From a phage, in assembly GCA_024673055.1 (NCBI GenBank), contig GCA_024673055.1_4537.1: DNA of 64,000 nucleotides; one strand, written 5' to 3'. The translations under genes and the position numbers were made by a program. The notes beneath the pieces are model-generated. The model was not told the origin of the DNA. It made no database searches and saw only the letters and a program-made list of their open reading frames with translations. Positions 767 to 34,166 of this stretch are shown here, in pieces (within the stretch, counting starts at the first letter, position 1; each line of letters starts with the position of its first letter).

Positions 767-1111
767 ATGAAAGTTTGGATAGATGATATGCGGAACCCAG
801 CCGACTATGGACAGGAAGATGCAATTTGGTTTAAAACGTCACAAGAAGCTATGGCCTTTCTCAATGATCCTGCTAAACTGTATCGAAGAGTAACCGAGTG
901 GTCTTTTGACAATGATTTAGGTATGGAGTCAGACCAAGATGGGTATGATGTTTTCCTGCACCTGGAAGAACTTCTGGCGTTTGGTAAACCTTGCTTTGGT
1001 TCACCTACCATTTTCGTGCATACTTCTAATCCCGCCGCTGGGGATAAATTCATGCTTGCAAAAGAATCCATGCTGCGTTATGGTATTAAAATGATTCGTG
1101 TGCACTACTAA
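767..1111 (+). CDS. hypothetical protein
   Basis: 114-aa ORF with AAGGAGG SD 7 nt upstream of ATG. Confidence 0.55.
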   Translation: MKVWIDDMRNPADYGQEDAIWFKTSQEAMAFLNDPAKLYRRVTEWSFDNDLGMESDQDGYDVFLHLEELLAFGKPCFGSPTIFVHTSNPAAGDKFMLAKESMLRYGIKMIRVHY

Positions 1112-1120
1112 GGAGAAAAC

Positions 1121-1264
1121 ATGCATCATTCGGTTTGGTCGGAACAAGAAGAGGACGAAGGTTACTTTATCTACCGAGAAGAAGAGGATTGGCCCGACAC
1201 AAGTAATGATCTTTTACTTCCAGACACTAGTTTTTTCGAGGATAACTTAAGAGAGGAGGATTAG
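1121..1264 (+). CDS. small acidic hypothetical protein (47 aa)
   Basis: ATG 1121 preceded by AAGGAGAAAAC; fills gap between annotated ORFs; below 60-aa track cutoff. Confidence 0.3.
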   Translation: MHHSVWSEQEEDEGYFIYREEEDWPDTSNDLLLPDTSFFEDNLREED

Positions 1265-1270
1265 GAAACA

Positions 1271-1627
1271 ATGAGTGGTATTGAAAACAACATTTGTTAC
1301 CAACCTCTTACCTGGATTGGTGAGGGTCATTATGCGCAACGTGTTATCGTCTGTGCTGCGAATAAGTATATTTTGAATAATGGTGAAGAGTTAATTATTC
1401 CTTGTGTTCGACATGCAAATCCTGTACTATATGCACAGTTAAGCGTGTTGAAAGAAGCAGGTGTAATCAACAAAACTTTGTGCACACCAGATAATCAAGG
1501 CTTTATCGATCAGTATTACAATTGGTGGAGTCGTGCGGATGCTTACATCATCGCGGAAAATGCTGACCAGATCGACCATGAGCGTAATGGTCACGACCAT
1601 GAATTATTTAGCGAGGGATTATACTAA
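1271..1627 (+). CDS. hypothetical protein
   Basis: 118-aa ORF, GAGGAGGA SD, stop overlaps next start. Confidence 0.55.
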   Translation: MSGIENNICYQPLTWIGEGHYAQRVIVCAANKYILNNGEELIIPCVRHANPVLYAQLSVLKEAGVINKTLCTPDNQGFIDQYYNWWSRADAYIIAENADQIDHERNGHDHELFSEGLY

Positions 1628-2178
1628 TGTTTATTACAAGCGATTTGCATTTTATGCATAAACGTATTCGAGAGTTTGCTCCTGAATATCGTCCGTGGGA
1701 AGATATGGACCACATGACAGAAGCCTTGATCGAAGCATGGAACAAATGTGCTACTACTCCTGGTGTTAAGATGTGGCATTTGGGCGACTTCTGTTTCGGA
1801 ACTGAAGAAGATACCCGTAAAATTGCTTCCCGTCTCCAAGGAGATATCACCTACTGTGTTGGGAACCATGACTACAGCAAACACCGAGAAGTGCTTGCAG
1901 AGTATGGAGAAGTGGTGTATTATGACGAAGTGAAATATCAGAAGCTGTTCTTCGTCTTAAGCCATTACCCTATGGCCTCCTGGAATAAACAAGGTCGTGG
2001 ATCAATCATGCTACACGGGCATTCCCACGGATCTTTCCCTGATGAAGCTTATGGTAAAATGTTAGATGTGGGTTGGGATGCACACGGAAAAATCTTGCAT
2101 TTTGATGAGATAATTTCTATGATGAGTAAACGAGATATCGTGACTGTAGACCATCACAAAATAATCAAAGGAGAATAA
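1627..2178 (+). CDS. calcineurin-like metallophosphoesterase (candidate 2',3'/3'-phosphatase of RNA repair cassette)
   Basis: Motifs SDLHFMH (DxH), LGDFCFG, VGNHDY (GNHD), LHGHSHG (GHxH) typical of metallophosphoesterases; immediately upstream of RNA ligase. Confidence 0.7.
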   Translation: MFITSDLHFMHKRIREFAPEYRPWEDMDHMTEALIEAWNKCATTPGVKMWHLGDFCFGTEEDTRKIASRLQGDITYCVGNHDYSKHREVLAEYGEVVYYDEVKYQKLFFVLSHYPMASWNKQGRGSIMLHGHSHGSFPDEAYGKMLDVGWDAHGKILHFDEIISMMSKRDIVTVDHHKIIKGE

Positions 2179-2179
2179 T

Positions 2180-3112
2180 GTGGCTAAATTTAATTGCGAC
2201 GATTTGGTTGAAAAAGGTTTAGTTCATAAGAAAACATATAAAGAAGGAGAGTATTCTGGTCTATCTGTTCTTAAGTATAAGAACAAAGTTTTCTGGGATA
2301 ACTTATGGAGCATTGATTCTCGTCTTCTAGAATGTCGCGGAATCGTTGTTGATGCTGATGACAATGTTGTTATTTGGCCTTTCACTAAGATTTTTAATCG
2401 TTTTGAGAATGGCACAGATCTACCAGCGGATGAACTTGTAGATGTGGTTCGTAAAGTAAATGGTTTTATGGCCTCTGTAGGTGTATATAAAGGTCAACTT
2501 ATTGTATCGACAACAGGAAGCCTTGAATCAGATTTTGCAAGTATTGCAAAGAATCATATTGTTTCAGAGTGTGATGACATAGAACATTTCATCAAATGGA
2601 CAGAGAGTGCAAAAGCAACTTTCCTTTTTGAAATCTGTGATCCTTCTGATCCGCATATTGTCGAAGAAGAACCAGGTGCATACTTAATTGGTGCCAGAAT
2701 TCAAAATCCTGATGGGACAAGTTTTATGTTACCTGAAGGTGCTCTTGATGGAATTGCTTCTGTCACCAAATTTAAGCGTCCTGAAGTTCATCCAATGGTT
2801 AAGTTTTCAGATGTTGTTGAAATGTCTAAACATTGTAAACACGAAGGGTTTGTAGTTCGTGAAACAAACTATCCGTTCAACTTACTTTTAAAAATTAAAT
2901 CACCACACTATCTTACTAAGAAGTTTCTTATGCGCGGTGGAGATAAAAAGTGGGATCTGATTTGGGATAATCCAAAAAATGCCAAACAAATGGTTGACGA
3001 AGAATATTACGCTTTGTTAGAATGGATTCGAAATAATTTTACGAAGATTCAATGGGCTGCTTTAAATCAGCAAGAGCGACGTGAAAAAATCGAAAACTTT
3101 TTTGGAGGATAA
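2180..3112 (+). CDS. rnlA: RNA ligase 1 (T4 gp63/Rnl1 family)
   Basis: GTG start after AAGGAG; LECRGIVVD and KVNGFMASV (nucleotidyltransferase motif I lysine) and STTGSLESDFASIAKNHI align with recalled T4 Rnl1 LECRGIMFE / KEDGSLVST / KSKGSIKSEQALMANGIL. Confidence 0.7.
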   Translation: MAKFNCDDLVEKGLVHKKTYKEGEYSGLSVLKYKNKVFWDNLWSIDSRLLECRGIVVDADDNVVIWPFTKIFNRFENGTDLPADELVDVVRKVNGFMASVGVYKGQLIVSTTGSLESDFASIAKNHIVSECDDIEHFIKWTESAKATFLFEICDPSDPHIVEEEPGAYLIGARIQNPDGTSFMLPEGALDGIASVTKFKRPEVHPMVKFSDVVEMSKHCKHEGFVVRETNYPFNLLLKIKSPHYLTKKFLMRGGDKKWDLIWDNPKNAKQMVDEEYYALLEWIRNNFTKIQWAALNQQERREKIENFFGG

Positions 3113-3517
3113 ATGAAACAACTTATCATTTTACGTGGTGTTTCAGGTGCTGGTAAATCTACAGTAGCAGAAATTATTTCTGAAGGTTATTGGCCTATCT
3201 GTGAGGCAGATCAATATCATTACACAGAGAGTGGTGTTTACGATTGGAAGCCAGAAAATGTAGGTAAAGCACACGCATGGTGTCAGGGTATTGTTCGTGA
3301 TGCTATGGCATCTAATCTTAACAAGATTATTGTTTCTAATACTTCAACCACAGAGAAAGAACTTAAACCTTATCTAGCTCTTGCTGAAGAGTTTGGTTAT
3401 CAAGTTATCTCTTTAGTTGTTGAAAATAGGCACGGTAATGATTCAATTCACGAGGTTCCACAATATATCCGTGATCAGCAAGAGAAACGTCTTCGTGGTT
3501 CACTTAAACTTCAATAA
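3113..3517 (+). CDS. P-loop polynucleotide-kinase-like protein
   Basis: Walker A GVSGAGKST at N-terminus; 134 aa; resembles kinase domain of T4 Pnk; adjacent to Rnl1. Confidence 0.55.
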   Translation: MKQLIILRGVSGAGKSTVAEIISEGYWPICEADQYHYTESGVYDWKPENVGKAHAWCQGIVRDAMASNLNKIIVSNTSTTEKELKPYLALAEEFGYQVISLVVENRHGNDSIHEVPQYIRDQQEKRLRGSLKLQ

Positions 3518-3526
3518 GGAGAAATA

Positions 3527-3853
3527 ATGCAGATTTATACAGATGATCGTAAATATGAGACAATTTTAGATGAAGATACTGGACGAATTACCGTTCTCCG
3601 TCACGGTGAAGAGTGGCGTGATGAAACGGGAGACAATTATATCTTGTCTCTGATTCATCTTATTGAACAAATGCGTGATGATTACGCTGAACTGCATTAT
3701 GAAAATGAGGCTAATAAAGTAAAATTTGAAAATGAATTAGAAGAGAAAGAATCCGAAATGGTATATCTAAAAGAAGAGATCTCCCGTTTGGAGGAAGAGA
3801 TTGATGCTCTTCAAGAAGAGATTTACGAACTCAACAACGAACTTAACGCTTAA
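3527..3853 (+). CDS. hypothetical coiled-coil acidic protein
   Basis: 108-aa ORF, AAGGAG SD; C-terminal heptad-like EEEI repeats. Confidence 0.5.
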   Translation: MQIYTDDRKYETILDEDTGRITVLRHGEEWRDETGDNYILSLIHLIEQMRDDYAELHYENEANKVKFENELEEKESEMVYLKEEISRLEEEIDALQEEIYELNNELNA

Positions 3854-3862
3854 GGAGGGATT

Positions 3863-4054
3863 ATGAAAAAAGATATCGTTGTTGTTGGTTGGCTGACTTG
3901 CCCTTGTGGTAGTAATGACATAACTGTAAACACAGAGGGTGATAAAAATTATTTATTCTACGGGGATAAAATCACTTGCAATACCTGCGGACGTGTTGGT
4001 ATTATAGAAACCGATGATTGTTGTGCTTTTGAATCTTGGGATGAAGAAGAATGA
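3863..4054 (+). CDS. small zinc-ribbon protein
   Basis: CPCG...CNTCG paired Cys motifs; AAGGAGG SD. Confidence 0.45.
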   Translation: MKKDIVVVGWLTCPCGSNDITVNTEGDKNYLFYGDKITCNTCGRVGIIETDDCCAFESWDEEE

Positions 4055-4272
4055 GTACTGCATTTTATGTTCGTAGCGGAGACGAGGATTTTTTAGCTAC
4101 TTTTGATGACGGTGATCTTGAAGATATGTATGAAGATATGCTTGACTATGCCAAAGGGCAAGGTTTCACAAGCATTGATTACATGTTGGCAACATCTACA
4201 ACGTTACTCGACGCAGATTTGGATGAAGTGTGTAACAGATTGAAAATTTCAGTTTTTAAATGGGAGGACTAA
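4051..4272 (+). CDS. hypothetical acidic protein
   Basis: 73-aa ORF overlapping stop/start with neighbours. Confidence 0.4.
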   Translation: MSTAFYVRSGDEDFLATFDDGDLEDMYEDMLDYAKGQGFTSIDYMLATSTTLLDADLDEVCNRLKISVFKWED

Positions 4273-5387
4273 TGCAACAAACAAATCAAACGCTGTATGG
4301 TAAAGATTCAAAAGGAAAACTTAAACAGTGGACAGTGTATACAGATGGTGCAGTTGTTACTGTAGCTCATGGAAGAGTAGGTGGAAAAATCACAGAAAAA
4401 TCTTATACAGCAGAAGCAAAAAACATTGGTCGCTCCAATGAAACAACACCGGAAGAACAAGCTGAACTTGAAGCTTTTGCCAAATGGACAAAACAGTTAA
4501 AGAATGGTTATTATAAAACAAAAGAAGAAGCTGAAAACCATGTTCCTTCCACACCAATGAAATGCCAGGATTATAAAGATTATCCTGAAAGGGTTGTGTT
4601 CCCTGGTTATGCACAATACAAACTGAACGGGTTACGTTCTATGATTAACATGAAAGGAGAGTGTTTATCAAAAGCTGGGGAAGTGTATAACCTGCCACCT
4701 CATTGGAAAGGTATTCCAAACTTTATTAGTGAAGTTGTTGGTCATCCTCTTGATGGTGAAGTGTTTGCTGGGTTAGGTGTCCTTAGTCTGCAACAAATTA
4801 ACAGCGCCTGGAAGAAGCATAATGCAAATACACCTTTGCTGAATTATTACGTATACGATATTCCAGTTCCAGATCTACCGTTTGAAAAACGTGTTGATGT
4901 TCTTGCTGCTCTTAAGGCAGTAGTTGAAGATTATGGTCTTAATGAGCTTATTTGTGTAGTTCATACAGAGTATATTGAAAACCAAGAACAGTTTGATGCT
5001 TTCTATGAAAAAGCTTTACTTGAGAAAGCTGAAGGTGTAGTATATCGTAATGCTCACGGAGTTTACGAATTTGATAAACGTTCTTATGACGTTATTAAAC
5101 GTAAGCCTCGCCATACCCTTGAAGTTAAAGTAACAAATTCAAAAAGTGATAAAAATGGCGATGGAGTGTTGACAGGTGAGATGGAAAATGGTAAAGTAGT
5201 CGAATTCTTAATGCGTAAAGATGCTCATGAGACTATCAATTATCGTAAAGCAGAGAATGCTTCTACCTTGATTAATCAGTTTGTTGAAATAGAGTATGAA
5301 GAATTTTCAGATGAAGGTATTCCAACAAAACCTGTTGGTGTTCGTATTCGAGAAATGATCCCAGGCACTTGGGAACCAGCAGAATAA
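4272..5387 (+). CDS. ATP-dependent ligase-family nucleotidyltransferase (probable DNA ligase)
   Basis: Start ATG 4272 after GGGAGGA; motif I variant KLNGLR (KxDG-type), LDGEV, EGVVYR, DVIKRK spaced as in covalent nucleotidyltransferases. Confidence 0.5.
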   Translation: MQQTNQTLYGKDSKGKLKQWTVYTDGAVVTVAHGRVGGKITEKSYTAEAKNIGRSNETTPEEQAELEAFAKWTKQLKNGYYKTKEEAENHVPSTPMKCQDYKDYPERVVFPGYAQYKLNGLRSMINMKGECLSKAGEVYNLPPHWKGIPNFISEVVGHPLDGEVFAGLGVLSLQQINSAWKKHNANTPLLNYYVYDIPVPDLPFEKRVDVLAALKAVVEDYGLNELICVVHTEYIENQEQFDAFYEKALLEKAEGVVYRNAHGVYEFDKRSYDVIKRKPRHTLEVKVTNSKSDKNGDGVLTGEMENGKVVEFLMRKDAHETINYRKAENASTLINQFVEIEYEEFSDEGIPTKPVGVRIREMIPGTWEPAE

Positions 5388-5396
5388 GGAGGAAAA

Positions 5397-5591
5397 ATGT
5401 TCTTAGCCATTTTAATCGTTTTCAGTGTGCTTTCTTTTTATTGTATGAATGCTTCGGAAAGCTTTCCTAAGAATTCAAAGAAAAGAACCGTATGTATTGC
5501 GATTGATTCATGTATGTCTGGAGTTGGGTATGCGGTAGTTTCTTGTTTCTTAGCTTATCATTGTGCAAAATACCTGGAGGCATTTTTATGA
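5397..5591 (+). CDS. small hydrophobic protein
   Basis: 64-aa ORF with N-terminal hydrophobic segment; SD AGGAGG. Confidence 0.35.
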   Translation: MFLAILIVFSVLSFYCMNASESFPKNSKKRTVCIAIDSCMSGVGYAVVSCFLAYHCAKYLEAFL

Positions 5592-5770
5592 TAATTTTAG
5601 CAACAATTCTTATGATGTTGATAGCCATTGCTATTGTAATTCTGGCATCTTTTCCGGCGGATAAATGGTATTTCAATATTCCACGTATGCTTGTTTTCGG
5701 TTTCGCAGGAATTTACATGGGTGAGACTGTAGTAAATATTAGCAACTTTCTAGAAAGCTATTTTAAATAA
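5588..5770 (+). CDS. small membrane protein
   Basis: GGAGG SD then ATG 5588; two predicted TM helices (IILATILMMLIAIAIVILA, MLVFGFAGIYM). Confidence 0.4.
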   Translation: MIILATILMMLIAIAIVILASFPADKWYFNIPRMLVFGFAGIYMGETVVNISNFLESYFK

Positions 5771-5779
5771 GGAGTTATA

Positions 5780-6505
5780 ATGATCGAGAATTTTTTTAAA
5801 GATATTAAATTCGATACTGAATTTTTCAAAAATGCAGCAAAGCACGTAATTGATTGGAATGCCAAAGCACGAGGTGGTGAACAACCTGAATTCACTCAAG
5901 AGTTATTTATGTCCCAAATCGGGTTCGTTCGTGAAGAGCTTAAAGAGTATGAAACAGCCGCGAAAGTAAACGATCATGTAGAACTCTTGGATGCAGCAGC
6001 GGATATTTTTGTAGTATCTAGTTATCTTACTTACATGTTCTTTGGTGAAGAACATACGCTGAATTTCTTGGACTATGCTGTAGGCGATGTTTTTACTCCA
6101 ACTGTGTATACCGATTTCGATGCTTTGGAACAAACATTTACAGAGCCAGTTCAAATGGCGCTAATGGCTGCTGGTATTATGCGTATGTCTCGTGACACTC
6201 TGATCCGTTCAAAATATCCAGAAAAGAAAGTTATTAAAGAGGTATTGAAAAGTAATGATTCCAAGTATCCAACTAAACAACAGTTGCTGAAAACTTGGAA
6301 AACTTCAGATATCGATTCAGCCATTGCACAAGAATGCGCTGCAATTGAAGAACGAAATGCCAATCGTCCAGAAGGGGCATACACTGGTGTTCATGCCGTT
6401 TATAATGAAAAACAGAAAGTGTATGTGTTCTTTGATGATAAAGGTAAGATCATGAAGTGGTCAGGTTTCATTAAACCTAATATCGCAGGTATTATTAACA
6501 AGTAA
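5780..6505 (+). CDS. hypothetical protein (possible all-alpha MazG-like NTP pyrophosphohydrolase fold)
   Basis: 241-aa ORF; segment REELKEYETAAKVNDHVELLDAAADIFVV resembles MazG/HisE EExxE...D motif; weak. Confidence 0.45.
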   Translation: MIENFFKDIKFDTEFFKNAAKHVIDWNAKARGGEQPEFTQELFMSQIGFVREELKEYETAAKVNDHVELLDAAADIFVVSSYLTYMFFGEEHTLNFLDYAVGDVFTPTVYTDFDALEQTFTEPVQMALMAAGIMRMSRDTLIRSKYPEKKVIKEVLKSNDSKYPTKQQLLKTWKTSDIDSAIAQECAAIEERNANRPEGAYTGVHAVYNEKQKVYVFFDDKGKIMKWSGFIKPNIAGIINK

Positions 6506-7473: not shown

Positions 7474-7502
7474 GCCTACCTACTTAATGAGGTAGGCTTT
7501 TT
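7474..7502 (+). terminator. stem-loop with U-tract overlapping promoter
   Basis: GCCTACC...GGTAGGC stem followed by TTTTT, directly after the -10 element. Confidence 0.45.
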
Positions 7503-20395: not shown

Positions 20396-20896
20396 ATGGC
20401 TAAAGTAGTAGATGAGTTTGATATGCTACGAGTCGATGAAGGACTGAAGCTTACTGTTTACCAAGATCATCTTGGTTATTGGACAGTTGGCATAGGACAC
20501 CTTCTGACTAAAATAAAAGATAAAGCAAAGGCTATTCAAATCTTAGATAATCTTCTTGGTCGTAAGACTAATGGAGTTATCACAGAAAAAGAAGCCCGTC
20601 AAATCTTTGCTGACGATGTTGCAAAAGTGAAGAGAGACATAAAAAACAGTACTATCTTATCACCAATCTATGATAAGGTTAGTGATACTCGTAAATTGGG
20701 AATAATCAACATGGTTTTCCAGTTGGGGTTAAAAGGTGCTGAAGGGTTTCAAAATAGCTTGACTTTAATCAGCAATGCATATTATACTCAAGCAGGTAAA
20801 AACATGCGTAAAAGCCGATGGTATAGCCAGACGCCAAACCGTGCTGAACGAGTAATTAAAGTTCTGACTTCTGGAACTTTAGATGCTTACAACTAA
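20396..20896 (+). CDS. e: T4-type lysozyme (endolysin)
   Basis: MLRVDEGLKLTVYQD...GYWTVGIGHLLTK...NMVFQLG...KSRWYSQTPNRAERVI closely parallels T4 lysozyme including the catalytic Glu/Asp/Thr region. Confidence 0.9.
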   Translation: MAKVVDEFDMLRVDEGLKLTVYQDHLGYWTVGIGHLLTKIKDKAKAIQILDNLLGRKTNGVITEKEARQIFADDVAKVKRDIKNSTILSPIYDKVSDTRKLGIINMVFQLGLKGAEGFQNSLTLISNAYYTQAGKNMRKSRWYSQTPNRAERVIKVLTSGTLDAYN

Positions 20897-20898
20897 TA

Positions 20899-20920
20899 AA
20901 GGGGCTTCGGCCCCTTCTAA
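20899..20920 (+). terminator. stem-loop (UUCG tetraloop), weak U-tract
   Basis: GGGGC-TTCG-GCCCC followed by TTCTAAAA. Confidence 0.45.
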
Positions 20921-20933
20921 AAGGAGTGCTACT

Positions 20934-21692
20934 ATGGGAAATAAAACCGCAGCTAAAACACAACGGCAGAAACTGGCTAATTCAGCAAAGATTGAAAGCC
21001 GTTATGCAGCAAAAGCGGTAGGTAATGACGATTACCGTTTAGATGAATTTATGCCTGAAGGGGACCAAAATAAGATTGTTCAAAGCATGATTTGGAATGA
21101 TCTGACTGTTGTAAATGCTCCGGCAGGGACTGGTAAAACCTCTGTTGCTTTATGGAAAGCTTTGCAGATGCTTCGTTCAGGAGACTTCCGTAAACTACTT
21201 TTTATCAAGAACCCTACTGAAGTCGGAGATGATCAGATTGGTTTCTTGTCGGGGGATAAAACAGATAAACTAGCAGCACACTATGAATCTACAAAACGTA
21301 TTTTCCAGCAATTCATGACAGCCAACAAATTGGAAAACGATATTGGATCAGGTAAGATCGAATTGAATATTCCTAACTATTTGTTAGGGGCTACCCTGGA
21401 TAATACAATCGTCATTATTGACGAAGCACAACTTATGTCAACAGAAACACTTAAACTTCTTATTGAACGTGCAGGTATTAATACGCATGTTATTGTATTA
21501 GGCGATGTTCGCCAGACATATGCAATTAAAAAACGTAGCAATGGTCTGCATCAAATTTTGGAACTTTTATATCCAGAAAATGAAGAAGGTGTTCGTGAGC
21601 CAATTGTAGATTTTATTGGATACGTTGAACTGACAACGGACGATAATAAACGTGGACGTTTGTCTAAACTGATTACTGAAGTGTTTATTTAA
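20934..21692 (+). CDS. phoH: PhoH-like ATPase
   Basis: Walker A APAGTGKTS, Walker B IIDEAQ; start ATG 20934 after AAGGAG (track start 20883 overlaps lysozyme and terminator). Confidence 0.75.
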   Translation: MGNKTAAKTQRQKLANSAKIESRYAAKAVGNDDYRLDEFMPEGDQNKIVQSMIWNDLTVVNAPAGTGKTSVALWKALQMLRSGDFRKLLFIKNPTEVGDDQIGFLSGDKTDKLAAHYESTKRIFQQFMTANKLENDIGSGKIELNIPNYLLGATLDNTIVIIDEAQLMSTETLKLLIERAGINTHVIVLGDVRQTYAIKKRSNGLHQILELLYPENEEGVREPIVDFIGYVELTTDDNKRGRLSKLITEVFI

Positions 21693-25182: not shown

Positions 25183-25512
25183 ATGGAAATTACTACAGAA
25201 CAAGCCCTTATCGACGAGGGTCGTAAAATCTTAGAAAAGTATTTAGGGGAGATTCATAAAACCCCTGGCTATTTGGGTTGGAGAATTGTTGAAGCTGTAG
25301 ATTTCCTTCCTCGTAACAGTAAAAACGTCGAAATGCGATCTCTTTTCTTATTAGTAAAGGTGGATGGGGATACACCTTTTAAAGATGCCGCAGAACATAT
25401 TGAAAAAGTTGAAGAGAAAGCTTATGCAGAATTTGCCGATCTTGTTTTAGAACAAGAGATTGAAGGAAAGGTGAATATTTTTATTTTCTTAGATTTTGAG
25501 GAGGATAAGTGA
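25183..25512 (+). CDS. hypothetical protein
   Basis: 109-aa ORF, GAGGAGGAAGG SD. Confidence 0.5.
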   Translation: MEITTEQALIDEGRKILEKYLGEIHKTPGYLGWRIVEAVDFLPRNSKNVEMRSLFLLVKVDGDTPFKDAAEHIEKVEEKAYAEFADLVLEQEIEGKVNIFIFLDFEEDK

Positions 25513-26252
25513 TCATACACAGAGAAATTACTGTTGAAAGCGATCAAGATCTTTTTATAATTGGAGATCTACACGGTTGTTATAATTTGTATGAAAAAGG
25601 AAAGGCAAAGTTAGGTATCCGAGATACAGATGTGGTTGTATCTCTAGGAGATCTTACTGACCGTGGAAAGCAAAACTTTCGTTGTGTTTTAGAATTTACT
25701 CGTAAACACAATCGCTACGCTATTCGTGGAAATCATGAAGACATGATGATTAAAGGTATGCTGGAAGGAGATCGTAGCTACTACGAGTGTTGGTATCAAA
25801 ATGGAGGATATACGGTCTTTGAAGAATGTGGTGAAGAAGGAGCTACAGCCTTAGCAATGATGACAGAAGATTTACCTGTTGTTCTCATTGTTAACTACAG
25901 AGGCATGAAACTTGCGTTTATTCATGGTGGGTATCCATCTTCTTTGGAATATCTCCCTGTAACAGATATTCCAGAATACATTTCGAAGATGACAAAAACA
26001 CAGGAAAACCGTTTTGCTGAAGCACTTATGTGGGACAGAGATATGGTAGACTGTGCTAAAGAGGGAATGAAACTTCCTGTTGTGATGGGTGTGGATTATG
26101 TGTTTCATGGACACTCTTATGTAAAAACACCTATTATCAATGCGAATCGTGTTTATATGGATACTGGATCTGTGTTCAATAATAACTTAACATTTGCTTA
26201 TTTCGATATGGACGGTGGTCTTCAATTTTATTCAACTCTTGAGGAGGATTAA
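25509..26252 (+). CDS. Ser/Thr protein phosphatase (lambda PPase-like metallophosphatase)
   Basis: GDLHG, GDLTDRG, RGNHE motifs in canonical order; GTG start after GAGGAGGA. Confidence 0.75.
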   Translation: MIIHREITVESDQDLFIIGDLHGCYNLYEKGKAKLGIRDTDVVVSLGDLTDRGKQNFRCVLEFTRKHNRYAIRGNHEDMMIKGMLEGDRSYYECWYQNGGYTVFEECGEEGATALAMMTEDLPVVLIVNYRGMKLAFIHGGYPSSLEYLPVTDIPEYISKMTKTQENRFAEALMWDRDMVDCAKEGMKLPVVMGVDYVFHGHSYVKTPIINANRVYMDTGSVFNNNLTFAYFDMDGGLQFYSTLEED

Positions 26253-31704: not shown

Positions 31705-32190
31705 ATGTTTCAAGTAAATGTCAATGTGCATAATAGTTACTCTGATTGTGAAACGTGTGGCTATAATTCATCTAATGTTATTCGTATTAGTGGCGATTTA
31801 GGAGAAGCTTCTTTTGGAGAAGAAGCAAGTTGCTTTAGTGGTATGGATGCAGAATGGAATGATATTGCACATTGGTTAGTGAGCAAACTAAAAGAAAAAG
31901 AGAAACCATTTCCTACTCTGCTTGATCGTTCTCTTGTGGAAGATGCAGGTAAAGCATATGCAGACTATGCGTATGCAGACGGGAAATATTTGGAAGATGA
32001 TAAGGCTAACCATTTGCTTTATGTTTACTATGAAGCTGAATCTGCCTACGATAATTATTACAGCATGTCTAACATCCTACGTCTGTTTGCAGAGTTTGAT
32101 ATTTATTTCGAAGTAGAATTTTCAGAAGATGATACTTACGAGTACAATTCTTATGATCCATTTGAGGAGGAAGAATGCCAAGACGAGTGA
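31705..32190 (+). CDS. hypothetical acidic protein
   Basis: 161-aa ORF, AGGAGGGAATATG. Confidence 0.5.
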   Translation: MFQVNVNVHNSYSDCETCGYNSSNVIRISGDLGEASFGEEASCFSGMDAEWNDIAHWLVSKLKEKEKPFPTLLDRSLVEDAGKAYADYAYADGKYLEDDKANHLLYVYYEAESAYDNYYSMSNILRLFAEFDIYFEVEFSEDDTYEYNSYDPFEEEECQDE

Positions 32191-32990
32191 TTTTTGTAAG
32201 TGGTGCAGGTTTAAGTGCAGACAGTGGGATTCGAACATTTAGAACAGACACAGATAGTGGTCGTGCTTTATGGGAAGAATATGATTTAGAAGAGGTCTGC
32301 GATATTGGAGCTTTCCAAGCAGGTTATCGTGTTAGAACATCTCCAGATCTTCCAGTGGTCGGTGGTGTAGACGAGAACGGTATGGATTTGTATGCCAAAA
32401 CACACGAATTTTATAACAAAAGACGTGTTGAGCTTAAAGATGTACAACCTAATGCTGCACATATTCAAATAGCAAAGTGGTTTAAGGAATATCCTAACCA
32501 AATAGTAAACTTGACAACAAACGTTGATGATCTACTAGAGCGAGCAGGTGTAGACAGAGATTCTGTTATTCACGTACACGGATATCTTCCTGAAGTAGTT
32601 TACCGTATGCATCCTGGAGATTACAAAACACTGGTAGATATTGGTTACAATAGTATAAACATAGATGATTATAACTGGGTGAAGCCTAATGTTGTATTTT
32701 TTGGTGAGGCTGCACCTTTGTATGCAGATATGGCTCACTTGTTCGATACTTTGACCATGCAAGATTTGGTTGTAGTAGTAGGATGTTCAAACCAAGTTAT
32801 CAATTTTAATTGGGAATTATTTCCTGCACTTAGTATGGGTACAAAAATGGTTGTAGTTAACCCTGGAGTTAATTACGAAGAAACACTTCTCTATGAAGAT
32901 CGTGGAGTTTTTGTTTACCGAGAAAAAGCTGCAACAGCCTTCAGCAATGAAGGTTTCATTAAAATGGTCGAAGACCACTTAAACAAATAA
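32175..32990 (+). CDS. SIR2-family (sirtuin-like) NAD-binding protein lacking zinc module
   Basis: FVSGAGLSADSGIRTFR matches sirtuin GAGxSxxSGIPxFR; NVDDLLERAG and HVHG motifs present; no CxxC zinc ribbon. Confidence 0.65.
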   Translation: MPRRVIFVSGAGLSADSGIRTFRTDTDSGRALWEEYDLEEVCDIGAFQAGYRVRTSPDLPVVGGVDENGMDLYAKTHEFYNKRRVELKDVQPNAAHIQIAKWFKEYPNQIVNLTTNVDDLLERAGVDRDSVIHVHGYLPEVVYRMHPGDYKTLVDIGYNSINIDDYNWVKPNVVFFGEAAPLYADMAHLFDTLTMQDLVVVVGCSNQVINFNWELFPALSMGTKMVVVNPGVNYEETLLYEDRGVFVYREKAATAFSNEGFIKMVEDHLNK

Positions 32991-32998
32991 ACCACTCA

Positions 32999-33024
32999 AG
33001 GGGGCTTCGGCCCCTTTCTTATTA
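32999..33024 (+). terminator. intrinsic terminator (UUCG tetraloop)
   Basis: GGGGC-TTCG-GCCCC followed by TTTCTTATT. Confidence 0.6.
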
Positions 33025-33034
33025 GGAGAATAAA

Positions 33035-33307
33035 ATGACTGAAGAAATCCGTGATTACTACCTTGCACATTACGTTTACTACTTTGCCAATGCTACACAA
33101 AAAGGGGAAGGTAATCTTTACTTGGCAACAGGACATGGAACAGGCGTTAGGAAATCAAATATTGATAATGCCTTGGCTCAAGTGGCTGCGGGGCTAGAAG
33201 ATAAACTTCAAACACCTGTAGTTGTAGTGATGCAAAATATAAGTTACCTAGCAAGTTGTACTGAAACCGAATTTAACGCGTCTGAGACGCAATCTAACGA
33301 AGAATAA
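33035..33307 (+). CDS. hypothetical protein
   Basis: 90-aa ORF, AGGAGAATAAA SD; last + strand gene before strand switch. Confidence 0.45.
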   Translation: MTEEIRDYYLAHYVYYFANATQKGEGNLYLATGHGTGVRKSNIDNALAQVAAGLEDKLQTPVVVVMQNISYLASCTETEFNASETQSNEE

Positions 33308-33310
33308 AAC

Positions 33311-33337
33311 AAAGGCACCCAAGTGGGTGCCTTTTCT
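33311..33337. terminator. bidirectional terminator at convergence point
   Basis: GGCACCC-AAGT-GGGTGCC hairpin flanked by T-tracts on both strands between converging gene blocks. Confidence 0.6.
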
Positions 33338-33376
33338 ATTTTAGAGCGTCTCTGTTCGATTTAGGTGGGTTCTAGC

Positions 33377-33607
33377 TTACTTGTGTAGTGCTCTCTCGTA
33401 TAACTCAATGATCAATTCATCCTCTACTGTAATACGCGCCATTTGATCCGTCTTAAGTATTGTTGGTTGGTAGTGGTGCATTTCACTATTGATACTACAA
33501 TCCCATTCGTCATAACCTAAATACTCTCCTACATGGACCTTAACCATAAAGGGAAACGGGTTATCTACCAAAAATGCCATACAACCTTCTTCGATTTTAT
33601 TTAACAC
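33377..33607 (-). CDS. hypothetical protein
   Basis: Track ORF; start ambiguous. Confidence 0.35.
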   Translation of the reverse strand: MLNKIEEGCMAFLVDNPFPFMVKVHVGEYLGYDEWDCSINSEMHHYQPTILKTDQMARITVEDELIIELYERALHK

Positions 33608-33698
33608 ACGACCTCCTATTGCTACAGATATGAAAAAACCCGCCGAAGCGGGTTCTATTGCTACGATAGGATCACTATCCTATAGTATTGTTTCTGTG

Positions 33699-33980
33699 TC
33701 AAGCCTTAGCGTAGAAAAACTTCTCATATTCAGATTTTGTTACGATTGTGGGGCAATCTTTTGTTCCATCCTCGATAACAGGGGCTTCTACCATTCTGGT
33801 GTTGAATAAGCAATAAGTTCCACGCATGTAAATACCCAGTTTTGTTTCTACGATGTGCTCTTTACTTACACTTGAAAACTTAATCTCACCATCGGAGTCT
33901 CTTATAGCAATAAGCGCATGTTCAGGCCAATCTTTTCCTTTTGCTCCTAAAGCATTATACAATTCTTGAACGAGTTCCAT
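33699..33980 (-). CDS. hypothetical protein
   Basis: 93-aa track ORF in same-strand array. Confidence 0.45.
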   Translation of the reverse strand: MELVQELYNALGAKGKDWPEHALIAIRDSDGEIKFSSVSKEHIVETKLGIYMRGTYCLFNTRMVEAPVIEDGTKDCPTIVTKSEYEKFFYAKA

Positions 33981-33992
33981 ATGACCTCCTTA

Positions 33993-34166
33993 TTAAATAA
34001 CAAATTTTTCTTCTTCTGGCTTATCGTAATCTGGAGAATAAACATGTGCGGGATTAAAACCTTTAAAATTTCCGCGACCTTTACGTGGACAGTTGAATGT
34101 GCGAGCTTGATGATCCCCAAAAGATTTCCCACAATGCATACATTTAAAATCAGTGCGTTTAGTCAT
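33993..34166 (-). CDS. small zinc-ribbon protein
   Basis: AAGGAGA SD then ATG 34166; CMHCG...CPRKG Cys pairs. Confidence 0.4.
   Translation of the reverse strand: MTKRTDFKCMHCGKSFGDHQARTFNCPRKGRGNFKGFNPAHVYSPDYDKPEEEKFVI

Follow-up and report, generated by a model that had tools for sequence, protein, structure and literature searches.

A metallophosphoesterase, an Rnl1-clade ligase and a stand-alone kinase as a probable RNA-repair module of Phapecoctavirus and other phages

Three adjacent genes at positions 1627–3517 of a 64 000-nucleotide stretch of phage DNA (contig GCA_024673055.1_4537.1; this whole stretch is called the window) encode a metallophosphoesterase (MPE), an ATP-dependent RNA ligase and a P-loop kinase. 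Do these three free-standing proteins heal and seal broken RNA together? We consider it probable that the genes form a phage module for the repair of RNA breaks, most likely those of cut tRNAs. Conserved synteny, fusion of the kinase to the ligase and the swapping of one ligase for another make RNA healing and sealing the best functional reading of the cassette. The window is that of a Phapecoctavirus (subfamily Stephanstirmvirinae), 98–99% identical to phAPEC8-like Escherichia myoviruses. Dozens of Phapecoctavirus genomes carry the cassette stretch at 98–99% identity, and the catalytic residues do not vary among 66–80 divergent homologues, which places the trio far beyond chance. In GenBank entry MK373788 the three genes are labelled 'putative phosphoesterase', 'putative RNA ligase' and 'putative polynucleotide kinase'.

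The proposed sequence of events is as follows. Ribonucleases of the host or of a competitor, typically metal-independent anticodon nucleases, would cut the RNA so that one end carries a 2',3'-cyclic phosphate and the other a 5'-OH. The MPE would generate a 3'-OH from the cyclic phosphate or 3'-phosphate, the kinase would convert the 5'-OH to a 5'-phosphate and the ligase would then seal the 3'-OH to the 5'-PO4 through a lysyl-AMP at K92. Three further proteins encoded in the window, cREC, MazG and a distal Sir2, may provide an accessory or alternative route for the clean-up of cyclic or 2'-phosphates, as hypothesized for related phages (Iyer et al., 2022; PMC9503650). The module would serve as a counter-defence against tRNA cleavage.

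The three proteins and their active sites

A first-pass annotation of this DNA had called the three open reading frames (ORFs) a metallophosphoesterase, an Rnl1-type ligase and a kinase resembling only the kinase domain of T4 Pnk. Pfam and PHROG profiles uphold all three calls. The ligase matches PF09511 (RNA_lig_T4_1) over the entire model (positions 1–227 of 227; 3.8e-15, 56.8 bits for a gathering cut-off of 28.3) and phrog_562 (3.4e-70). The profile of its family has T4 Rnl1 as its sole match in the PDB (5.6e-14), and hhalign aligns the two with 97.9% probability at about 23% identity. Each of the T4 reference residues (R54, K75, motif I K99, E159, motif IV E227-G228 and motif V K240/K242) has its counterpart in the alignment, namely R53, K70, K92, E151, E222-G223 and K238/K240, K92 being the motif I lysine, and all of these counterparts are among the ten sites that are invariant in 80/80 homologues. 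On the other hand, the protein scores only 24.1 bits against the T4 RnlA equivalog TIGR02308 of NCBIfam, the cut-off of which is 242.25, and a tblastn search with the ligase among 728 phage records did not recover T4. By its sequence, the ligase is assigned to a distinct short subfamily of the Rnl1 clade and is not a T4 RnlA orthologue. This subfamily is essentially phage-restricted, since the genomes of 185,579 cellular species gave only seven matches, mostly on metagenome-assembled contigs.

The kinase matches AAA_33 (2.7e-10) and the PHROG family annotated 'polynucleotide kinase' (phrog_505; 7.9e-8). Its P-loop, GVSGAGKST, reads G9-x4-G14-K15-S16, and D33 corresponds to the catalytic aspartate of the T4 enzyme (D35); K15 and D33 are both kept in 70 of 72 homologues. 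The best matches of the kinase profile in the PDB are Pnkp1 (1.2e-6), PSTK (2e-5), CthPnk (1e-3) and T4 Pnk (3e-3), with adenylate, gluconate and thymidylate kinases scoring more weakly than the polynucleotide kinases. As the first-pass annotation had it, the match to T4 Pnk is confined to its kinase half (residues 2–146; 94.3% probability in hhalign). A T4-type HAD phosphatase (DxDxT) has no match in the kinase or anywhere in the window, and no member of the cassette is encoded twice in the window. Profile comparison thus assigns the protein to the polynucleotide-kinase clade and not to the bifunctional Pnkp enzymes.

The MPE scores above the threshold of Pfam Metallophos (24.9 bits; cut-off 21.5) and matches phrog_547 (6.5e-56). 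The DxH, GNHD and GHxH motifs quoted in the first-pass annotation are located at D6-L-H8, G79-N-H-D82 and G131-H-S-H134, and the full set of marks of the calcineurin-like superfamily is present: the DxH, GD, GNH[DE], H and GHxH motifs, the Pfam score and an alpha/beta sandwich fold, which AlphaFold models confidently (pLDDT 96.2). The metal ligands D6, H8, D54, N80, H81, H113, H132 and H134 are invariant in an alignment of 51 sequences and are kept in at least 65 of 66 phage homologues. No specific affinity to the CthPnkp/lambda-phosphatase clade was found in sequence or structure. The MPE is a member of the uncharacterized Aq_1665 family, not of the bacterial Pnkp phosphatase clade, and for this reason it is genomic context that argues for its action on RNA 3' ends. 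Taken together, the conservation of the ligase sites, of K15 and D33 in the kinase and of the MPE ligands indicates that the active sites of the cassette are under purifying selection.

Linkage across phage loci

The genomic context was followed in 80 IMG/VR loci seeded with ligases 37–88% identical to that of the window. The kinase is found in 72 of them, at a median distance of 0.68 kb; 66 contain the MPE, at a median of 1.0 kb. Gene orders are permuted (MPE–ligase–kinase in 40 loci, kinase–ligase–MPE in 15, others including divergent arrangements), and tRNA genes occur in 36 of the loci. In Ralstonia phage RSP15, the ligase is mis-annotated as 'metallophosphoesterase' and the kinase as 'NEDD4-binding protein'.

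Loci seeded with the kinase provide a reciprocal and less biased test of the linkage. Here, the MPE is present in 52 of 78 (median distance 741 bp) and an Rnl1-like ligase in 32 of 78. At full-length kinase–MPE loci without an Rnl1-like ligase, 9 of 10 adjoining ORFs of about 380 aa proved to encode a different RNA ligase, composed of PF09414 with an N-terminal OB domain (PF21189), which among solved structures is nearest to the exemplar of Rnl5, Naegleria NgrRnl (3e-13). This Rnl5-type ligase replaces the Rnl1-like one beside the kinase and the MPE in loci L181, L186, L187, L189, L197, L205, L214 and L223, and eight kinase-seeded loci carry both types. Overall, an RNA ligase, whether Rnl1-like or Rnl5-like, lies near 32 of the 33 kinase–MPE pairs in full-length kinase-seeded loci.

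In ten loci (L053, L056, L058–L061, L063, L065, L066 and L068) the kinase and the ligase are fused: a single ORF of about 430 aa encodes the kinase as its N-terminal part (residues 13–141) and the Rnl1-like ligase after it (149–428; for example L056, 7536–8834). Together with the contact between ligase and kinase domain in the Pnkp1–Rnl–Hen1 complex described below, the fusions predict that the two proteins interact directly. No MPE was detected within 8 kb of the fusions, and a Pfam scan, which covered L056 only, revealed no alternative phosphoesterase there that would point to non-orthologous displacement of the MPE. In pakpunavirus PAK_P2 (L005, 8346–11172), the ligase–kinase pair is followed directly by genes for a ribose-phosphate pyrophosphokinase and a nicotinamide phosphoribosyltransferase, that is, for NAD salvage. 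Pakpunaviruses also encode a T4-like Pnkp and a second RNA ligase of 381 aa elsewhere in the genome (tables of PMC10511388), which suggests that RNA repair in these phages runs along two parallel routes and is tied to the NAD supply.

We may ask at this point whether the ends to be healed could be those of DNA. An ATP-dependent DNA ligase gene lies downstream of the cassette, as does an RdgC gene, and the MPE could be a DNA-end nuclease or 3'-phosphatase of the PdeM kind which, with a kinase acting on DNA 5'-OH, would feed this DNA ligase in replication or recombination. We find this very unlikely. The MPE scores far under the 150-bit cut-off for PdeM, and distance statistics also led us to reject it as a DNA-ligase-associated nuclease of that type: it lies nearer to an RNA ligase than to an ATP-dependent DNA ligase in 32 of 33 loci, and in 33 loci it has no DNA ligase within 8 kb. 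The MPE tracks RNA ligase, not DNA ligase. Moreover, the kinase is fused to RNA ligase and never to DNA ligase, and the kinase–MPE pair alternates between two families of RNA ligase.

Another alternative is that there is no functional unit here, only three independently useful early or middle genes packed into a dense operon. The cassette does lie inside a long co-directional operon of early/middle type, which in phage ESCO5 begins about 3 kb upstream of the window and is divergent from an array of ten tRNA genes; this array, about 5 kb upstream of the cassette, falls just outside the window, in which neither tRNA genes nor Rfam RNAs were found. All genes of the 7-kb transcription unit are tightly spaced. 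The MPE start codon overlaps the upstream ORF118 (TAATG), a 1-nt gap at 2179 separates the MPE from the ligase, the GTG start of the ligase has AAAGGAGAA just before it, and at 3110–3115 the TAA of the ligase is followed at once by the ATG of the kinase, with GGAGGA before. The search for an internal cassette promoter gave sigma-70-like sites at chance level (28 found, 23.4 ± 4.6 expected), which also suits a mere packing of genes. The first-pass annotation had described the three genes as translationally coupled. The tight junctions are there, but coupling is deduced from spacing only and every gene of the operon is equally tight, so that it is plausible without being distinctive. Against simple co-location, the linkage persists at only 37–60% protein identity, in permuted orders and on both strands, and it extends to gene fusion and ligase displacement. 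This alternative is already disfavoured, and we hold it to be hardly probable at all.

Neighbouring genes and the healing of the 3' end

Table 1. Coordinates of the cassette and of other features of the window
Feature	Coordinates	Strand	Length	Remarks
cREC (cyclic-phosphate-processing receiver-like) protein	767..1111	+	114 aa	PF20274 cREC_REC, 6.7e-17; two genes upstream of the MPE
ORF118, small orphan-fold protein	1271..1627	+		Overlaps the MPE start codon (TAATG)
Calcineurin-like MPE, Aq_1665/COG4186 family	1627..2178	+	183 aa	Proposed 2',3'-cyclic-phosphate/3'-phosphate end healing
Short Rnl1-clade ATP-dependent RNA ligase	2180..3112	+	310 aa	GTG start; predicted sealing enzyme
Stand-alone P-loop polynucleotide-kinase-like protein	3113..3517	+	134 aa	Proposed 5'-OH kinase
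ATP-dependent DNA ligase	4260-5387			Downstream of the cassette
MazG-like nucleotide pyrophosphohydrolase	5780..6505	+		Pfam PRA-PH, 2.8e-6; phrog_671; homologous to Mydo and HdK5 neighbours
Intrinsic terminator	7474..7497	+		8-bp stem then T run; ends the transcription unit with the cassette; terminator annotated at the same place in MK373788
Second MPE, lambda-phosphatase/NinI type	25509-26252	+	247 aa	GDLHG, GDLTDRG and GNHE motifs
Sir2-family protein	32175..32990	+	271 aa	PF02146, 1.9e-22; end of the rightward operon

The first-pass annotation had limited the module to three genes. This was too narrow, as cREC, MazG and Sir2, which belong to the published neighbourhood discussed below, are also encoded in the window (Table 1). 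In Proteus phage Mydo the homologue of cREC is encoded between the ligase and the kinase, and in the rV5-like phage HdK5 it follows the ligase; RefSeq gp119 of ESCO5 (20767–21111, L002) is also a cREC, mis-annotated as 'putative RNA ligase and tail attachment protein'. The Sir2 protein is 56% identical to that of Mydo (tblastn, 3.7e-102) and orthologous to the sirtuin that Mydo and rV5-like phages encode within their RNA-repair neighbourhood, although its gene is placed 29 kb downstream of the cassette, compared with 0.2–1 kb from the kinase or ligase in Mydo and HdK5. At about 32000–34000 the GC skew changes sign and the coding strand flips from + to −, two large transcription blocks converging just after Sir2. 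Since cREC, Sir2 and MazG each occur in only 10–13 of the 80 ligase-seeded loci (cREC in 10), they are lineage-restricted accessories. ORF118 belongs to a small protein family widespread in phages, with invariant IVCAAN, RH, QGFID and LFSExLY motifs. It has no Pfam or NCBIfam match, its confidently predicted fold has no match in the PDB and BFVD returns only uncharacterized phage proteins. The idea that it is a fourth conserved member was rejected: the ORFs of similar size beside the MPE in Mydo and HdK5 are not related to it, and its presence with the ligase in only 3 of the 80 loci indicates that it is probably a lineage-specific neighbour.

Several points weigh against specificity for tRNA or against the role proposed for the MPE. 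Of the full-length loci seeded with the MPE, 24 of 44 have no RNA ligase within 8 kb, which indicates that the MPE family extends beyond RNA repair. The MPE is also unrelated to Pnkp and lambda phosphatases, and this bears on the role assigned to it. Other candidate healers of 3' ends are encoded in the window, including the lambda-type MPE. Finally, as regards specificity for tRNA, the ligase is 64 aa shorter at its C-terminus than T4 Rnl1 (310 versus 374 aa): the HMM alignment stops at T4 residue 291 and that of hhalign at residue 249, and the ligase has a conserved DEEYY...R300 tail. In T4 Rnl1, the C-terminal tRNA-specificity domain spans approximately residues 255–374.

It is conceivable that the MPE does not heal RNA 3' ends. 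Healing would then fall either to the cREC–Sir2 route, in which the cyclic phosphate would be opened to a 2'-phosphate that is subsequently removed in an NAD-dependent step, or to the lambda-type phosphatase, while the MPE would degrade a by-product or a signal such as ADP-ribose 1''-2'' cyclic phosphate (ADPr>P) or cyclic (oligo)nucleotide alarm signals. Iyer et al. (PMC9503650) allow for a calcineurin-like enzyme acting on ADPr>P instead of RNA ends, and the phage encodes both cREC and Sir2. The family of the second MPE has 2',3'-cyclic phosphodiesterase activity demonstrated in vitro (PMC2190708), and the absence of a nearby RNA ligase from about half of the MPE-seeded loci would also fit. 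However, cREC and Sir2 accompany the ligase in 10–11 of the 80 loci compared with 66 for the MPE, which is therefore the only linked phosphoesterase in most lineages, and the kinase–MPE pair is adjoined by an RNA ligase with the single exception noted above. We judge this division of labour unlikely.

A more general arrangement may also be considered. The kinase and the Aq_1665-type MPE could constitute a phage-specific, ligase-agnostic healing pair, a split equivalent of Pnkp that would serve an Rnl1-like or an Rnl5-like ligase and would sometimes be fused, through its kinase, to the Rnl1-like one. The MPE would then provide the first function for COG4186/Aq_1665, as an RNA 2',3'-cyclic phosphodiesterase/3'-phosphatase. 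We regard this proposal as evenly poised. An explicit statement of such a two-gene core was not found in the literature covered, which did not extend to Burroughs & Aravind (2016), a paper that may describe the pair.

Comparison with known systems

The module is real, and many phages carry it. It has already been annotated in GenBank and predicted computationally (PMC9503650), so that the cassette is a new member of a predicted system and not a new principle; no biochemical or genetic study of the module was found in the literature. Its interest lies in the fact that tRNA-cleaving defences (PrrC, RloC, Cas13, retron/PtuAB, PARIS and HEPN toxins) are now recognized as widespread, while validated phage counter-measures are few beyond T4 Pnkp/Rnl1 and phage-encoded tRNAs. 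The genes are found in hundreds of therapeutically relevant phages, among them Phapecoctavirus, Vequintavirus and Pakpunavirus and phages of Vibrio, Aeromonas and Acinetobacter. If active, the module would probably be among the commonest RNA-repair devices of phages, and an orphan metallophosphoesterase family would gain a function.

The closest counterpart is a conserved neighbourhood of medium-sized phages, for which Escherichia phage V5 and Proteus phage Mydo serve as prototypes (Iyer et al., 2022, Viruses 14:1977, section 3.7.3; PMC9503650). Its 'type 2' set comprises a T4-like RNA ligase, cREC, a kinase, MazG, a sirtuin and sometimes a calcineurin-like phosphoesterase, and was interpreted, on computational grounds only, as repairing RNA with 2',3'-cyclic-phosphate ends. 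The window shares these families, with proteins 35–75% identical to those of Mydo or HdK5, and gathers ligase, cREC, kinase, MazG and MPE on one strand within 767–6505. It differs in that Sir2 is not adjacent, cREC lies upstream of the MPE and not after the ligase, and ORF118 is inserted. The phosphoesterase, which is occasional in the published description, is found in more than four-fifths of our ligase-seeded loci. Outside phages, the family of the MPE is represented by Aq_1665 of Aquifex aeolicus (PDB entry 1xm7; COG4186), a cellular protein with no assigned function and no established RNA-repair context.

T4 Pnkp (pseT) and Rnl1 (rnlA) have the same predicted chemistry, namely a 5'-kinase, a 3'-phosphoesterase and an Rnl1-clade ligase, and the ligase and kinase of the module are detectably homologous to them. 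In the module, however, the healing activities would be divided between two polypeptides, with an MPE in place of the HAD phosphatase. The first-pass annotation had set the cassette apart from T4 by its compactness, holding that the T4 genes are encoded at separate loci. This was mistaken: in NC_000866, pseT (134002–134907) and rnlA (136340–137464) lie on one strand, separated by 1.4 kb that contain pseT.1–3 and alc.

The same annotation took the replacement of HAD by an MPE as a differently assembled pathway. The replacement itself agrees with the lack of a T4-type HAD in the window; as a new design it does not stand, since an MPE defines bacterial Pnkp, where healing of 3' ends by this fold has been biochemically established since 2007 (PMC2190708, PMC3675462), and the published phage neighbourhood already counts a calcineurin-like phosphoesterase among its members (PMC9503650). 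Clostridium thermocellum Pnkp (of the Pnkp–Hen1 system) likewise combines a binuclear MPE, not a HAD enzyme, with a P-loop kinase and an ATP-dependent ligase, albeit on one polypeptide, and both MPE-fold CthPnkp and lambda phosphatase hydrolyse RNA 2',3'-cyclic phosphates (PMC2190708).

A precedent also exists for a split arrangement in which the RNA ligase is a protein of its own, the Capnocytophaga Pnkp1–Rnl–Hen1 complex (PMC4411300); among solved structures, the kinase domain of Pnkp1 comes closest to the window kinase. The phosphatase of Pnkp1, however, shares its polypeptide with the kinase and adopts a T4-Pnkp-like fold, and Hen1 is needed, whereas the MPE of the phage module stands free and Hen1 is lacking: none is annotated within 20 kb in ESCO5, where annotation was consulted and no dedicated profile search was made. 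In the Pnkp1–Rnl–Hen1 complex the ligase touches the kinase domain (PMC4411300), a contact that fits the kinase–ligase fusions of phages.

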